From UHGV virus genome UHGV-1610946: a stretch of DNA of 13,320 nt; one strand, written 5' to 3'. The notes beneath the pieces are model-generated. The model saw only the letters and a program-made list of their open reading frames with translations, was not told the origin of the DNA and ran no database searches. Numbering within the stretch: position 1 is the first letter of the stretch; each line of letters starts with the position of its first letter. Shown piece by piece: positions 6,085-12,837 of the stretch. Made by a program: the position numbers and the translations under genes. Source of the DNA: a virus.

Positions 6085-6480
6085 ATGATCACTTACGTGA
6101 CCTGTGATGACGTTGATAATGCGTTTGGGAACGCCTGGACGAGTGAGAACGCTAAAAATAAAGCTGTTTTAATGGCTAATGCCTGGCTTAATGGCTTCAA
6201 CCTGAAAATTAACCCATCCCGTATTCCGGAAGAGGTAAAACTTGCGGGAGCATATGCAGCCAGAATTGCCTCATTTGGTAAGTTGTTTCAGCAGAAAAAT
6301 GATTCTGGCGTTGTTATCAGTAAAGCCGTGTCGGCTGACGGGGTCAGTGTATCGAAATCATTTTCTGAGTTGCCAGCAAACAGCACTGCATTGCTTGAAC
6401 CCGATTTACAGCTTGCGATAGCACTGCTGAAACCGTACGGACTTAGTCGCTCACAAGTCAGGGTTGTGAGGGGGGGATAA
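6085..6480 (+). CDS. Putative head-tail connector / head completion protein
   Basis: 131-aa ORF with Shine-Dalgarno AGGAG 6 nt upstream. It is the first of four small, translationally coupled genes between capsid and major tail, the canonical position for gp6-like connector proteins. No motif verified. Confidence 0.45.
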   Translation: MITYVTCDDVDNAFGNAWTSENAKNKAVLMANAWLNGFNLKINPSRIPEEVKLAGAYAARIASFGKLFQQKNDSGVVISKAVSADGVSVSKSFSELPANSTALLEPDLQLAIALLKPYGLSRSQVRVVRGG

Positions 6481-6863
6481 TGGGGCTTCGTGAAGAGATT
6501 CAGTCAGAGGTTGCCGCTGCTTTTGATGAGGATTTAGCGGACGCCGTGAGTGATTTTTCTGGTTATTACGTTACGCACCGGCACTGGGATCCTGTGACGG
6601 AAACTGGCGGCGAATCCACCGCAATCTATACCGGGCGAGGCGTGTTGACACGTTATAAGCTGGGCAGAATTGATGGGATTAATATTTTGCATGGTGACCT
6701 TAAATTAACCGCTCTGGTATGCGAGGTTACGGATAAACCAGCTGTCGACCATATTATTGAGATTTATGATCCTGTATCAAGGCAGTTACAACGATACGAG
6801 GTAATTACAGCAAGTTTAGATCCTTCCGCATCAGTTTACTCTATCCAGTTAAGGAGAGCGTAA
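6480..6863 (+). CDS. Putative head-tail adaptor / head closure protein
   Basis: 127-aa ORF whose start overlaps the previous stop (TAATG), with a G-rich Shine-Dalgarno (GAGGGGGGG) upstream. Assigned by size and position in the neck-gene block. Confidence 0.4.
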   Translation: MGLREEIQSEVAAAFDEDLADAVSDFSGYYVTHRHWDPVTETGGESTAIYTGRGVLTRYKLGRIDGINILHGDLKLTALVCEVTDKPAVDHIIEIYDPVSRQLQRYEVITASLDPSASVYSIQLRRA

Positions 6864-7659: not shown

Positions 7660-8622
7660 GTGAGTTCAGGTGCAAAGGTTATCTCGGCATTTATCCGGGA
7701 GACAGTTGCAGGCACTACGCCAGCAAGTGGTGACTGGAGTTTATTAAAACGCACAAGCTGGGGAGTAAAACCCACCCAGAATAAAGGCGAAAATAATGAG
7801 ATTGGTGGCTCCCGGATGGCTCAGGGGGCGACGCCTGGCACTGTGGATGTCGGCGGTGATGTTGGTACCAAATTTCGCTGGGGTCAACATGATGATTTTC
7901 TTGCATCCTGTTTCGGCGCGGAATGGTCAGGCGATTCTCTGACAATGGGGAATGAGCGAATAACATTTTCTCTGGCGACCTATGCGTCCGATGTCGGAAT
8001 TGCCTCTGTCGTCAGAGGAGCGCAGGTTGGCTCATGGAAAATGCAGATCCCTAACGACGGCGATATTACAGCGACCGTAACCTTTGCCGGGCTGGGCTGG
8101 GAAACAAAGGCCGATGATACGAATTTTATCAAAGGCAAACCTGTGGATAGTGCAGGAAAGTTACGCTATTCGTTTAAGGAGGTTTCAGCAGTAAGCCTGA
8201 ATGGTGTTGCCGGAGGTAACGGTTTTTGTATCGACAGTTTTGATATTCAGTTCGATAACAAACTCCAGACACAGCGTTGTATCGGGACTGGCTCGCCTTA
8301 TGCAGGAGCAAATATTCCGACTACTTTTACACCGTCCGGTACGGTGACGCTTTCATGGTCTAAAGCCGCGTGGGAAATCTGGAGTAAAACACTGACTGGA
8401 GAAACAGTTCCGTTCAGCTTCACGCTTTCGAATGGAGAGGGGGCATACACTTTCAGTTTCCCGAAGGTTCAGGTGTCAGGTGAATGGCCTGATGGGGGTA
8501 ATACTGACATTATCCAGGTTCAATTGAGCATTACCGCAGCAGATGAAGCACCTACGATAACCAGAAAAAAATGCTCCCCGACTGCCGTGATCGCAAAAGC
8601 CAGTGCTGATGCGATTAGTTGA
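7660..8622 (+). CDS. Major tail (tube) protein (putative)
   Basis: 320-aa ORF with GTG start and a strong Shine-Dalgarno (AGGAGG at 7648-7653, 6-nt spacer). Lies directly upstream of the chaperone frameshift pair and tape measure gene, the conserved major tail position. Product is rich in Gly/Ser/Thr. Confidence 0.65.
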   Translation: MSSGAKVISAFIRETVAGTTPASGDWSLLKRTSWGVKPTQNKGENNEIGGSRMAQGATPGTVDVGGDVGTKFRWGQHDDFLASCFGAEWSGDSLTMGNERITFSLATYASDVGIASVVRGAQVGSWKMQIPNDGDITATVTFAGLGWETKADDTNFIKGKPVDSAGKLRYSFKEVSAVSLNGVAGGNGFCIDSFDIQFDNKLQTQRCIGTGSPYAGANIPTTFTPSGTVTLSWSKAAWEIWSKTLTGETVPFSFTLSNGEGAYTFSFPKVQVSGEWPDGGNTDIIQVQLSITAADEAPTITRKKCSPTAVIAKASADAIS

Positions 8623-8634
8623 TTTTCCGTTATT

Positions 8635-8661
8635 CCCCCTGTGGTACTGCACTACAGGGGG
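8635..8661 (+). promoter_or_regulatory. Hairpin after the major tail gene whose 3' arm overlaps the likely RBS of the chaperone gene
   Basis: CCCCCTGT(8635-8642) and ACAGGGGG(8654-8661) are perfect reverse complements (8-bp stem, up to 11 bp with a wobble). No T-run follows. The GGGGG of the right arm is the only Shine-Dalgarno-like element for ATG 8671. Confidence 0.45.
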
Positions 8662-8670
8662 ACGCATTGA

Positions 8671-9132
8671 ATGAGGTTATGGATGTTTATTCTTAATCAG
8701 AAAATTATCATCGGTGGAGAACGCTGGTTTACGCCAATGAAGGACTTAAAACCTGTAGACGGGTTAAAACTGTTGGTGGCAAGCAGCGATAACGATCAGT
8801 ATCGCTCCCGTAATGCATTAATCCGTCGTCACATTGAGAAAATGGATGCCAGTTTGCACGTCGGAACGAAGGAGTTTGATATTTCAAAGGTTTCCGAGGT
8901 AGATTCTGTTGATGATTTACTCATTGATAATGCTGCTCGTTATCTGCTGAAAGACTGGAAAGGGGTTGGTGAACTGGTTAATGGTGCTGAGGTTGCACTG
9001 GAATATACGCCAGAACGAGGGATCGCGCTGCTTAAGCAGAATCCAGAGTTGTACTGGCAGATCCTTGCAGAAGCAGCCAGCATCGCCCAGGGTAAAGAGC
9101 AGCAGAAGCAGGATACGATAAAAAAGCCATAG
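8671..9132 (+). CDS. Tail assembly chaperone (lambda gpG-like)
   Basis: 153-aa acidic ORF between the major tail and tape measure genes. A slippery heptamer lies 4 nt before its stop, and an overlapping -1 frame stays open for about 105 further codons. Start could instead be an in-frame ATG at 8683 or 8737. Confidence 0.6.
   Translation: MRLWMFILNQKIIIGGERWFTPMKDLKPVDGLKLLVASSDNDQYRSRNALIRRHIEKMDASLHVGTKEFDISKVSEVDSVDDLLIDNAARYLLKDWKGVGELVNGAEVALEYTPERGIALLKQNPELYWQILAEAASIAQGKEQQKQDTIKKP
9120..9126 (+). promoter_or_regulatory. Programmed -1 ribosomal frameshift slippery site A_AAA_AAG
   Basis: In the chaperone frame the codons are ATA AAA AAG CCA TAG. The heptamer A AAA AAG (9120-9126) is a classic Lys-tRNA slippery sequence. 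The -1 frame has no stop from 9096 to 9440. Confidence 0.6.
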
Positions 9133-9440
9133 CCGCCCAGCGGTGGTTATCGGAGTTCGGGGGAGAAAGGGGGGAAAAGGCAAGATGGAAGCGAGAAAAA
9201 CTCAGGTTGCCACCGATACCGGAACCAGAAATAGACCCGGTGCTTAAGGAATTGTTGTACGCCTATTCGGTAATATCCCGTGCCCGACGTTATGCTGGAA
9301 TGACCGGGGTGCCTTTGCCTTTATCTCTGACAGAGATAAATGAATATTTAGCCACTCATCCGGTATTGATTGAGCGCGATGAGTTTGAAGCAGTGATCTT
9401 TGCACTGGATGACCAGTATTTTCAGGATCAGTGTGTGTAG
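9123..9440 (+). CDS. Frameshift extension of the tail assembly chaperone (lambda gpT-like part of a G-T fusion)
   Basis: Frame is open from 9096 to the stop at 9438-9440 and is entered by a -1 slip at 9120-9126. The supplied ORF 9207..9440 has no ATG (it begins at TTG) and no RBS, consistent with expression only as a fusion. Predicted fusion is about 255 aa. Confidence 0.55.
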   Translation, partial: KAIAAQRWLSEFGGERGEKARWKREKLRLPPIPEPEIDPVLKELLYAYSVISRARRYAGMTGVPLPLSLTEINEYLATHPVLIERDEFEAVIFALDDQYFQDQCV

Positions 9441-9560
9441 TTGTTAATTACGTACACTCTGTTACAGAGATGTGATGGTGTCTTTAATTAAATCGATGAT
9501 GCTCCTGGAGAAAAGCATTGCGTGGCCTCGTAATCGCTATATCTACTATTATGTCGCCTG

Positions 9561-9587
9561 AAACCCACTTCGGTGGGCTTTTTGTTG
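9561..9587 (+). terminator. Terminator-like hairpin (5-bp stem, cUUCGg tetraloop, T5 run) upstream of the tape measure gene
   Basis: CCCAC(9564-9568) TTCG GTGGG(9573-9577) followed by CTTTTTGTTG. It lies in a 163-bp non-coding gap between the chaperone extension and the tape measure start, 17 nt before that gene's GGAG Shine-Dalgarno. Confidence 0.5.
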
Positions 9588-9603
9588 TCTGGAGTTTTAA
9601 TAA

Positions 9604-12600
9604 ATGGCAGAGCAAACCTCGCGTCTCGCAATAATTATTGATAGCACTGGAGCAAAAAATAATGCTGACAATCTGACCTCCTCATTAGTCAAAATGACGC
9701 AGGCCGGGGAAACTGCTGCAAATAGCGCAGGGAAAGTGACTAAGGCAACAGAAGATGAGAAGAACGCGCTCGCAAAATTAAAAGCAGCTATTGATCCAGT
9801 TGGTGCCGCAATTGATACTGTCGGTCGACGCTATTCTGAATTAAAGAAATTTTTCGATAAAGGGCTTATTGATAAAGAAGAATATGAATTTCTTGTCCGT
9901 AAACTTAATGAAACCACAGAGGAATTGAGCGGGGTTGCGCAAGCGCAGAGAGAAGCCGAGAAGGCCGGAAAACTTGCTGCCGCCCAGCAGGAAGCGCAGG
10001 CTCAGGCCTTTCAAAGAATGCTGGACAAGATCGACCCTCTGGCTGCGGCGCTAAGAAATCTTGAACAACAGCAGGATGAACTTAATGCTGCGTTTGCATC
10101 CGGGAAAATAAATGGTTCTCAGTTTGAGAATTATAGCCGAAAAATACAGGAAACACGGCGAGAGCTTACCGGAGAGGCTCAGGCAGAGCGAGAAGCAGCA
10201 AAAGCGCATGATGAACAGGTTGCTGCTTTGCAACGTCTGATTGCTCAACTTGACCCTGTCGGAACTGCTTTTAATCGTCTGGTAGAACAACAGAAACAGC
10301 TCAATGAAGCAAAAGCTAAGGGGATGCTCTCTCCTGAAATGTATGAGGAACTTTCTGGAAAACTTCGTGCTATGCGGAGTGAGCTTGAGGTTACTCAATC
10401 TCAATTAAGCAAAACCGGAATGTCGGCAAAACAAACGGCTTTTGCTATGCGCATGTTGCCTGCACAAATGACGGATATTGTTGTTGGGTTGTCCACTGGT
10501 CAGTCGCCTTTTATGGTGTTAATGCAGCAGGGCGGCCAGCTAAAAGATATGTTCGGTGGGATTGGCCCGGCGATCAAAGGTGTTGGTTCTTATGTGCTGG
10601 GATTAATTAATCCTTTTACCCTGGCCGCAGCAGCCGTTGGCGTCTTAGGGCTGGCTTACTATAAAGGCTCTCAGGAGCAGGACGAATTTAATAAATCTCT
10701 TATTCTTACCGGAAATCAGTTGGGGACAACCAGCGGGCAATTGGCCGATATAGCTCAACGTGCCGGGAATGCGGCTGATTCGACAACTGGCGCTGCGGCG
10801 GCAGTATTAAACCAGCTTGTGCGTTCGGGAAAGGTAGCGAGCAGTTCGCTGGAGCAAGTGACGACAGCGATAGTAAAAACGAGCGAAGTAACAGGAATAT
10901 CAACCGAACAACTGGTTAATGACTTCAATGAAATTGCAAAGGATCCTGTCAGTGCCATATCAAAACTTAATGATCAGTACCATTTTCTGACAATTGCGAC
11001 TTATAACCAGATTAAGGCGCTACAGGATGAAGGGAACCAGCAGGAGGCCGCCCGCATTGCGACAGAAGCATACTCATCCTCAATGATCCAGCGCACCAAC
11101 CAGATTAAAGAAAATCTTGGTTATCTTGAGGCTGCATGGAAAGCTGTCGCAGACTCCGCAAAATGGGCATGGGATTCCATGCTGGACATTGGCCGTGAGG
11201 CCTCCCTTGATCAAAAAATCTCAGATGTTCTCCGTCAAATTGATGAAATAGAAAAAAATACCCGACCCGGAGTTTTCGGGTTAGGTGGCATTGGAGATGG
11301 CGGAGCTCAAAATAAAAGGCTGGCACGATTAAAGCAGCAATTGGGCGTACTTCAAGCAGAAAAAATTGCTCAGGACGTCCTAAATTCATCAATAAACGAT
11401 TACAACAAGCGACAACAGGAAGGAATTGAACTCAGACAGAGAGCAGATGCCTTTTCAAAACAATATCAGACCCGGGAGCAGCAGAGAGCTAGTGAACTTG
11501 CAAAACTGGAAAAGCTAAAGAGTCAGTATTCAAAGGAAGAATATAATAATTTTATCGCTCAAATAAATGAGCGTTATAAAGATCCAAAGCAACCAAAGGC
11601 GAAAGGTTATTCGGATGATGCTGCCCAACGAATGATTGATCATCTGAATCAACAGAATGCGTTACTAAGTTCACAAACTGAATTAACCGTTAAATTAAGT
11701 TCCTCTGAACAGGAACTGGTTAAGTGGCGTCAGCAGATTGCCGACCTGGAGTCACGACCGTCATCGAAATTAACCCAGGATCAGAAATCGCTTCTCTTAC
11801 ACCGGGAAGAAATAACCGCGTTGATGGAGAAAAATGTTGCGATTGAAAAAAATAACAGGCTAATCAAGGAATCCGCCGAAATAGCTGCATGGCGTGATTT
11901 ATTGCAGGCTTCGATTGATAATCGTCAACAGGGGTATGATATTCAGATTGCTGGTTATGGGGTTGGCGATAAAAATCAGCAACGCCAGCAGGAATTACTG
12001 CGGATTGAACGTGAATATAACAATCAGCGTCTGCAACTTGAACGTGACTATGCAGATAAATCCCGTGGGATGTCAAATCATGTTTTTCAGGAGAAAATGC
12101 AGGCTCTGAATGATGCTCTGGAACGAGAAAAAGAAATTGTCAGACAGAAAAACGAGCAGCTCGATATTCAGGCAGGAGACTGGGTTAGTGGTGCCTCCCA
12201 GGGATTCAATAACTGGCTGGATGACACTAAGGATATCAGTGAGCAGATAAAATCAACCACGACTCAGATGTTTGATGGAATGACCGATGCGCTGGGTGAT
12301 TTTGTCACGACAGGCAAGGCAAATTTTCGTTCTTTCGCTACTTCCGTGATTTCGGATCTTAGTCGAATAGCATTAAAGGCTTCAATTACTGGGATTTTCG
12401 ACAGCATTAGTAACAGTTCTTCGGGGGGGATTTTAGGAACTATCGGGAGTGCTATTAGTAAATTTATTCCGAATGCAAAGGGCGGTGTTTATGAGTCTCC
12501 GTCATTGAACACGTATTCGAACGGTATTTATGATTCCCCGCAATTTTTTGCTTTTGCAAAAGGGGCTGGTGTTTTTGGTGAGGCTGGTCCGGAAGCCATT

Positions 12601-12837
12601 ATGCCATTAACACGAACATCCGATGGTTCTCTTGGTGTCAGAGCTATTAATAGTAAAAGTGGTAATGGAGGCGGAGATATTACCTATGCCCCTGTATACC
12701 AAATCACTATTCAAAATGACGGCCAGAATGGAGAGATTGGCCCTCAGGCAATAAAAGCACTTATGGGGATGGTTGATCAGCGGGTGCAGGGCAATCTGTT
12801 AAATATGCGACGTGATGGGGGAATGTTAAGTGGCTAA
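9604..12837 (+). CDS. Tail tape measure protein (lambda gpH-like)
   Basis: 1077-aa ORF with Shine-Dalgarno GGAG 9 nt upstream, lying immediately downstream of the frameshifted chaperone pair and upstream of gpM/gpL homologues. It has a long coiled-coil-like N-terminal region with three internal repeats of roughly 70-80 aa, a hydrophobic Gly/Ala-rich segment ([35 protein letters not shown]), and a C-terminal [11 protein letters not shown] segment that resembles lambda-family tape measure C-termini as I recall them. Confidence 0.9.

Follow-up and report, generated by a model that had tools for sequence, protein, structure and literature searches.

A candidate programmed -1 ribosomal frameshift at A_AAA_AAG in the ydaY tail assembly chaperone gene of Rac-like Escherichia coli phages

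The region between the chaperone start codon at 8683 (or 8671) and position 9440 very probably encodes a tail assembly chaperone pair of the G/GT type, the longer member of which would be made by a ribosomal -1 frameshift at the slippery heptamer A_AAA_AAG. This reading derives from a 13,320-nt stretch of viral DNA (genome UHGV-1610946), the whole of which we call the window, and from its comparison with related loci; judged in this way, the region displays every sequence-level hallmark of a G/GT-type chaperone frameshift. The mechanism is textbook, and the feature, real and unannotated in the ydaY group, is an ordinary example of it that holds little surprise.

The chaperone pair within the late operon

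By profile searches, the 13.3-kb window belongs to a Rac-like siphophage or prophage of E. coli and comprises its late (virion) operon. Its genes run from terminase through portal, head morphogenesis protein, scaffold, major head protein, adaptor and head closure protein to tail completion protein, tail terminator, tube, the chaperone ORF, tape measure and minor tail protein M, so that tube, chaperone and tape measure follow one another inside a canonical siphophage late operon. An initial annotation made from the letters alone (the first-pass annotation) had recognised a chaperone arrangement upstream of a tape measure gene, and the two neighbours of the pair, both on the plus strand, bear this out. 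Upstream is the tail tube (major tail) protein gene at 7660-8622 (PF18906 Phage_tube_2, E 1.4e-31; phrog_290), and downstream the gene for a 1077-aa tape measure protein at 9604-12837 (PF06791, E 1e-81; PF09718; PF24622; phrog_24), separated from the T segment by a 163-nt gap that contains a terminator-like hairpin. Induced E. coli phages such as vB_EcoS-606R9 share positions 8600-9650 at 100% identity, and of 5426 complete E. coli genomes about 1075 contain a match to the stretch. These include the Rac remnant of K-12, in which the chaperone ORF is the gene ydaY, the heptamer is retained and the 104-codon T frame is intact. Relatives of the Rac-like module are also present in Klebsiella, Citrobacter and Providencia.

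The G-like chaperone ORF (YdaY) occupies 8683-9132 on the plus strand and aligns to positions 13-149 of the 258 in the 'tail assembly chaperone' profile phrog_313 (E 8e-47). It had earlier been listed as a 153-aa chaperone; the identity holds, whereas the conserved start is ATG 8683, which gives 149 aa. We prefer this codon to ATG 8671 because the homologues all begin there, its methionine being shared by every one of them as the first residue, and a GAGG lies 6 nt upstream. The predicted masses from ATG 8683 and ATG 8671 are 16.9 and 17.5 kDa. The G part has no match in our local copy of Pfam, and PF27119 is named among its precomputed Pfam matches. Structure adds little for this half: phmmer returned no sequence relative in the PDB, and the AlphaFold model has low confidence (pLDDT 48.6) and is unusable for a fold check.

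The T-like segment lies in the -1 frame at 9126-9440 on the plus strand, with 104 codons followed by TAG 9438-9440. On its own the -1 product aligns to phrog_313 positions 173-245, and the T part also matches phrog_1189 (E 5.6e-36); when the two halves are joined in silico, the 256-aa fusion covers positions 13-245 of 258 in one stretch (E 1.4e-51). The two halves correspond in this way to the N- and C-terminal parts of a single chaperone profile, in keeping with the original proposal of a G-T-type fusion. The T part scores weakly against PF23812 Phage_TAC_18 (20.3 bits, under the 27-bit cut-off), a family matched by 12 of 21 homologues with a best E of 9e-6. Its AlphaFold model is confident (pLDDT 85.9), and a Foldseek search of the PDB with this model gave no meaningful solved-structure relative. 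Among predicted viral folds, the top named matches are 'tail assembly / tape measure chaperone' proteins of about 260 aa, including proteins from phages Loki, CcrColossus and K1H, with weak scores (E 0.006-0.09, TM 0.4-0.64). Pell and co-workers reportedly described in 2013 a spiral fold for tail assembly chaperones.

The predicted fusion joins 8683/8671-9126 to 9126-9440, with base 9126 read twice, and would measure 252 or 256 aa (28.8 or 29.3 kDa) depending on the start. Its junction reads ...QDTIKK-AIAAQRW..., with two lysines; the peptide strings first put forward for the junction (QDTIKK and KAIAAQRW) give three lysines when joined, and are corrected here.

In the mechanism that we propose, most ribosomes that start at 8683 or 8671 would stop at TAG 9130 and release the G-like chaperone of about 17 kDa. 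A minority would slip back by one base, tRNA-Lys on AAA in the P site and on AAG in the A site re-pairing with AAA AAA, and would then read GCC ATA GCC... in the -1 frame up to TAG 9438. The outcome would be a G-T fusion of about 29 kDa, ...QDTIKK-AIAAQRWLSEFGGERGEK..., predicted to yield DTIKKAIAAQRWLSE on digestion with Asp-N or Glu-C. By analogy with phage lambda, the G part may coat the tape measure protein and the T part may bring in the tube protein for polymerisation of the tube around the tape measure, and both the G and GT products would be absent from the finished virion. That the shift is ribosomal, how efficient it may be and what it does in assembly are matters that we infer. Our literature search found no published proteomics, ribosome profiling or reporter assay for the ydaY family and nothing relevant on ydaY in combination with frameshifting.

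Phase, position and conservation of the heptamer

The 0-frame codons ATA 9118-9120, AAA 9121-9123, AAG 9124-9126, CCA 9127-9129 and TAG 9130-9132 set AAAAAAG at 9120-9126 in the slippery X_XXY_YYZ phase on the plus strand, with AAA in the P site and AAG in the A site, as the first-pass annotation had it; its distance to the stop, given there as 4 nt, is the single codon CCA, or 3 nt. The claim that the -1 frame is open from 9096 to 9440 is likewise correct, since TAA 9093-9095 and TAG 9438-9440 bound that frame. Frames 0 and -1 are jointly open just in the 37 nt from 9096 to 9132, between TAA 9093-9095 in the -1 frame and TAG 9130-9132 in the 0 frame, so any shift is confined to this overlap, and A_AAA_AAG is the only slippery motif within it. 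Both the phase of the site and the arrangement of the frames can thus be read directly from the sequence.

By itself the motif is not unusual: AAAAAAG occurs 4 times in the window, against an expectation of 5.0 +/- 1.9, and the 14 genes of the window contain 24 in-phase X_XXY_YYZ heptamers. Apart from A_AAA_AAG, with its 104-codon -1 ORF, the only one of these 24 to be followed by a long -1 ORF is G_GGG_GGA at 6471, which we rejected as a second frameshift site because it serves the following gene as ribosome-binding site. In E. coli genes at large, in-phase A_AAA_AAG is strongly avoided (z = -10.1; PMC4066793 Table S3). The significance of the heptamer lies in its phase, position and conservation and not in the motif itself.

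Conservation was assessed on 184 loci that encode relatives of both the G and T halves, drawn from Escherichia, Shigella, Citrobacter, Klebsiella, Raoultella, Dryocola, Scandinavium and Providencia and from Erwinia and Pseudomonas phages; Acinetobacter phage TRS1, in which the T half alone was detected, was handled apart from these. T lies in the -1 frame relative to G at 183 of the 184 loci, and an in-phase canonical heptamer occupies the homologous site in 128 of 132 distinct sequences, 122 with A_AAA_AAG and 6 with G_GGA_AAG. The comparison of homologues that had been suggested as a check therefore comes out in favour of both the slip site and the -1 frame. The one discordant locus (L060) carries a 1-nt deletion in the G-run of the tract at 9159-9180 that breaks the T frame, and it is a broken T, not a natural fusion.

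The pattern of substitution within the heptamer argues that slipperiness itself is retained. Across 54 distinct 76-nt segments, positions 4-7 of the heptamer are invariant and positions 1-3 co-vary as AAA or GGG; inside the heptamer the synonymous positions do not change, whereas neighbouring third-codon positions reach 1.0-1.6 bits of entropy. In the six sequences with G_GGA_AAG, which is lambda's own heptamer, it sits at the identical position, and the change from A_AAA to G_GGA altered three adjacent bases together at the cost of a Lys-to-Gly replacement while keeping the site slippery. In E. coli the two heptamers frameshift at near-identical rates with no stimulator, the IS911 stimulator and the IS3 stimulator, respectively 0.29, 4.3 and 39% for A_AAA_AAG and 0.28, 3.8 and 43% for G_GGA_AAG (PMC4066793 Table S3). 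This swap of heptamers of equal efficiency at one site illustrates from nature that slipperiness itself is what selection acts on, and the comparison as a whole indicates selective retention of the slippery heptamer. Non-canonical sites are found in distant relatives, C_GCA_AAG in Erwinia phage Gungnir39 and G_GAA_AAG in Pseudomonas phiPSA1-type phages, and the A-site AAG is all that remains constant across the four forms.

The possibility that RNA polymerase adds or drops an A within the A6 run, the edited mRNA then being read normally, bears directly on these substitutions. Such products are known to arise also by homopolymer slippage (PMC5009743); the site does contain six A residues in a row, and the distant relative TRS1 has an A7 run there. 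Yet G_GGA_AAG, G_GAA_AAG and C_GCA_AAG hold only 3-4 A at the same position, and it is the X_XXY_YYZ phase and the A-site AAG that are conserved, not the length of the run. Even in the window, moreover, six A residues are short for efficient slippage by RNA polymerase. We consider transcriptional slippage very unlikely, and read the conserved site as one of ribosomal slippage.

The boundary between the two coding frames also falls at the heptamer. In Providencia relatives the overlap shrinks to just 19 nt, with the heptamer still inside it, and among relatives generally the 0-frame stop lies at +3, +21, +75 or +105 nt after the heptamer; T homology starts at the heptamer in every case, wherever that stop falls. 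In the ten codons that precede the heptamer, it is mainly the 0-frame third positions that vary. Over the 13 codons that follow the heptamer, taken in the -1 frame, third positions vary in 12 of 13, first positions in 5 of 13 and second positions in 6 of 13. Substitution patterns of this kind indicate that purifying selection on the -1 frame begins exactly at the heptamer. Directly after the heptamer stands the peptide (A/V)(I/L)xAQxWLxEFGG, conserved as far from E. coli as Providencia and Erwinia and placed before every possible -1-frame start codon.

This last stretch weighs against the idea that the downstream ORF is a separate gene, translated from a start of its own at TTG 9207, GTG 9240 or TTG 9255 with no recoding. 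The first-pass annotation had described the -1 ORF as lacking an ATG and a ribosome-binding site. That description is right in so far as no ATG, GTG or TTG occurs in the -1 frame within 9096-9206 and no Shine-Dalgarno sequence stands at a proper distance before TTG 9207; it is wrong in that an ATG is present at 9297, although within the conserved domain. TTG 9207 is the earliest -1-frame start codon, and it is there that the ORF lister begins the ORF; annotated coding sequences also exist at window positions 9255-9440 in ON470595 and 9240-9440 in NZ_CP026723, and these calls are what a separate gene has in its favour. The 27 codons before 9207, however, encode a peptide conserved across genera with third-position variation in the -1 frame. 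The relatives share no conserved start codon in that frame, and in many of them the first ATG, GTG or TTG is codon 58, within the conserved RYAGM motif of the domain. Gene callers accordingly miss the T piece or give it arbitrary N-termini, and 27 T fragments were called where G proteins numbered more than 159. Comparison thus establishes that an independent start is absent, and we regard an independently initiated T gene as highly improbable; the T segment is better read as the -1 extension of G.

The same set of loci speaks to whether the pair is a single gene that has been broken, by pseudogenisation or by sequencing error in the A run, and whose intact form is one continuous frame. Many copies do reside in decaying prophages such as K-12 Rac, and rare single-ORF versions exist (P0001, P0025, P0232). 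The -1 arrangement is nevertheless found in 183/184 loci, from many genera and independent assemblies, and no full-length G-T match was found among 136 cluster representatives from 1.8 billion proteins, each of which covers the G or the T part. The rare matches that span the junction are fragments with indels or, in one case, a repeat-mediated deletion: P0001, which we considered as an ancestral fused gene, results from a 35-nt deletion between 10-nt direct repeats, and P0025, P0159 and P0211, considered as natural fusions, look like indel or assembly artefacts. Because P0001 and L060 are separate deletions and all other loci keep the -1 frame, we treat the single-ORF cases as exceptions or errors. 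The probability that the two-frame arrangement is damage to one continuous gene is negligible, and we retain the two-product chaperone gene as our reading.

Stimulatory elements and expected yield

We found no conserved RNA structure downstream of the heptamer: RNAalifold on 34 representatives gave a consensus of -2.6 kcal/mol with zero covariation, and, folded singly, sequences of 12 clades did no better than their shuffles (z-scores -1.1 to +1.3). An 11-bp local hairpin at 9127-9153 on the plus strand (-14.2 kcal/mol; 24 of 200 shuffles are as stable) follows the heptamer with zero spacer. Outside the E. coli clade it is missing or takes another form, and it was rejected as a conserved element on these grounds; it is probably not required as a stimulator. 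An AGGA 6 nt upstream of the heptamer in enteric sequences resembles a Shine-Dalgarno-like stimulator and was also set aside, being part of the Q-E/D-T codons and missing in Providencia. The G-rich tract at 9159-9180 (plus strand), which had been floated as a possible influence on slippage and which we considered as a G-quadruplex stimulator, does not qualify either: it sits 32 nt downstream of the heptamer and consists of -1-frame codons for the conserved peptide FGGERGEK, with third positions that vary freely.

Because a conserved stimulator was not found, the efficiency of frameshifting is probably low, as for lambda, which would here mean tenths of a percent to a few percent. The lambda GT:G ratio is 1:30. 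It is possible, although we think it unlikely, that the ydaY family frameshifts without an RNA stimulator; the GT:G ratio would then be about tenfold below that of lambda, or an unrecognised stimulator would set it. Candidates for the latter may be the conserved C-terminal peptide of nascent G, GKEQQxQETVKK, acting in the exit tunnel, or the nearby 0-frame stop. Bare A_AAA_AAG gives only about 0.3% frameshifting in E. coli reporters (PMC4066793), and the yield here may be very low.

Relation to known systems and to current annotation

The G and G-T chaperones of lambda are the reference for this class (Levin, Hendrix & Casjens 1993; Xu, Hendrix & Duda 2004, 2013, 2014; summarised in PMC5009743). 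The lambda frameshift was demonstrated in 1993 and long-tailed phages were surveyed in 2004 (PMC5009743), with experimental confirmation in lambda, P2, L5, TM4, phiC31, HK022 and HK97 (PMC5313236, PMC5009743). Members of the class are expected to make the two products in a fixed ratio, to need both for tail assembly and to leave neither in the virion. As in lambda, the gene in the window is flanked by the major tail gene and the tape measure gene, a -1 shift is predicted near the 3' end of G at an X_XXY_YYZ heptamer ending in AAG, and a short and a C-terminally extended product of similar sizes would result, with no stimulator evident; six relatives of the window use the exact lambda heptamer G_GGA_AAG. 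The differences are that the heptamer here is A_AAA_AAG, that the 0-frame stop follows it after 3 nt rather than the 15 nt of lambda, and that T is separated from the tape measure gene by 163 nt whereas lambda T overlaps H. Sequence similarity is lacking altogether: BLASTP of G against lambda G returned zero alignments, and hhalign of the T profile against lambda T gave a probability of 0.2%. Such dissimilarity between chaperones is usual for the class (PMC5009743). Judged from these comparisons, the pair is an analogue of lambda G/GT in role and mechanism, not a demonstrable homologue.

A nearer point of reference is Acinetobacter phage vB_AbaS_TRS1 (NC_031098), where TRS1_18/TRS1_19 belong to the same family, have the same synteny and a T part 37.5% identical to ours, and are already annotated as a joined -1 chaperone CDS. 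Its G part was unmatched by tblastn. The slip region of TRS1 is ACG AAA AAA AGC and not A_AAA_AAG, and, unlike the window, TRS1 has extra ORFs between T and the tape measure gene.

Among elements that share the heptamer, E. coli dnaX (gamma/tau) also uses A_AAA_AAG and slippage of a single tRNA-Lys, the tRNA that we propose to slip here. The dnaX shift is of high efficiency, with a Shine-Dalgarno-like element upstream and a hairpin downstream. The window differs in that a conserved stimulator is absent and the frameshift product is the longer one, whereas dnaX frameshifting yields the shorter product (PMC4066793). ECs1801, from prophage Sp9 of O157:H7 Sakai, constitutes cluster A_AAA_AAG_25 of Sharma et al. 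2014, for which -1 frameshifting was considered 'safely inferred' (PMC4066793). It resembles the window in that a tail assembly chaperone of a prophage is encoded, the in-phase A_AAA_AAG is conserved and the -1 product is the longer one. We considered this cluster as a prior description of ydaY and rejected it, since ECs1801 is a different, unrelated protein of 124 aa with zero BLASTP similarity to ours. The ydaY family is absent from the 69 clusters of that study (PMC4066793).

The expectation that annotation would miss the fusion proved accurate. None of the GenBank and RefSeq records that we inspected for the Rac-like/ydaY group annotates slippage; they give ydaY and a stray 'hypothetical protein' downstream, and the chaperone itself is named 'YdaY' or 'hypothetical protein' in all of them. 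Once the slippage is recognised, ydaY would gain a function and the correct 252/256-aa GT product, and spurious small ORFs would disappear. The understanding of frameshifting and of tail assembly is unchanged by the ydaY case, and its value is for annotation. RefSeq, for its part, often assigns to the chaperone the truncated 119-aa K-12 model.

Mutations at the chaperone junction

The E. coli protein P0001, one of the homologous proteins compared, is the product of a 35-nt deletion between two copies of a 10-nt direct repeat, GCAGAAGCAG (9067-9076 and 9102-9111 in the window), by which the tail assembly chaperone ORF, G, is permanently fused to T, the -1-frame segment at 9126-9440. P0001 is thus a naturally occurring, constitutive GT mutant. 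Breakage of T is seen as well: a run of six G within the T frame (9170-9175) is a hot spot, either mutational or of sequencing, and in L060, one of the compared loci encoding relatives of the chaperone region, it is shortened to five G, leaving T broken.

Slippery motifs in relatives and elsewhere in the window

A set of variant loci (L069-L079, L084, L086, L087 and L007) has an additional heptamer in phase, G_GGA_AAA, which lies 30 nt 5' of the main site, A_AAA_AAG (9120-9126), and in these variants the -1 frame is open at this upstream heptamer (homologous to window positions 9090-9096). The window's counterpart is GGT AAA, which places a -1-frame stop, TAA, at 9093-9095.

The canonical heptamer is absent at the homologous junction in distant family members: Pseudomonas phages Aurca01 and phiPSA1 (L095/L098), Erwinia phage Gungnir39 (L097) and two Acinetobacter phages (L096/L099). 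Junction sequences among distant members comprise C_GCA_AAG with TAA directly after, G_GAA_AAG, or A-rich runs (ACG AAA AAA AGC; GCA AAA AGC), and the sole feature common to them is a lysine codon in the A site. Separate ORFs are annotated in all distant members but the Acinetobacter phage TRS1.

Elsewhere in the window, an in-phase G_GGG_GGA (6471-6477) lies one codon ahead of the stop that ends the adaptor gene (6085-6480), and past it the -1 frame stays open for 128 codons, extending into the gene that follows (6480-6863). This motif is best explained as the ribosome-binding site of that following gene; G_GGG_GGA is a very poor shifter, at 0.04% (PMC4066793 Table S3).

The gap between T and the tape measure gene

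The 163-nt gap that separates the end of T from the tape measure gene (9441-9603) contains a terminator-like hairpin followed by a T-run, GAAACCCACTTCGGTGGGCTTTTTGTTG (9560-9590). Among 102 distinct segments from relatives, 39 have a terminator-like hairpin no more than 200 nt past the end of T, compared with 1 of 102 control segments taken inside the tube gene. The relatives' hairpins are of unrelated sequence, and are frequently found immediately 5' of the tape measure start. The gap itself is hypervariable (109 versions), and in the relatives from Klebsiella, Acinetobacter and Pseudomonas it holds extra ORFs. Its possible roles are that of an attenuator or mRNA-end element and that of a cargo slot. 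Adjoining the window's hairpin on its upstream side is a 28-codon ORF, MVSLIKSMMLLEKSIAWPRNRYIYYYVA (9475-9561), which is probably not a gene, because its start codon reads ATA instead of ATG in the L074 clade and locus L018 has a truncated version.

Annotation of ydaY and the tape measure gene

RefSeq (loci L188 and L189) gives ydaY, the chaperone gene, as 119 aa from a TTG at 8773 (8773-9132), even in intact prophages; the full-length start is at 8683 or 8671. The RefSeq model appears to have been carried over from the N-terminally deleted ydaY of the K-12 Rac remnant; in that remnant the heptamer is still present and the T frame is intact. The tape measure gene is intact in the window (1077 aa), and in the otherwise near-identical records L001 (ON470595) and L189 (NZ_CP026723) it is split in two CDS or flagged 'internal stop'.
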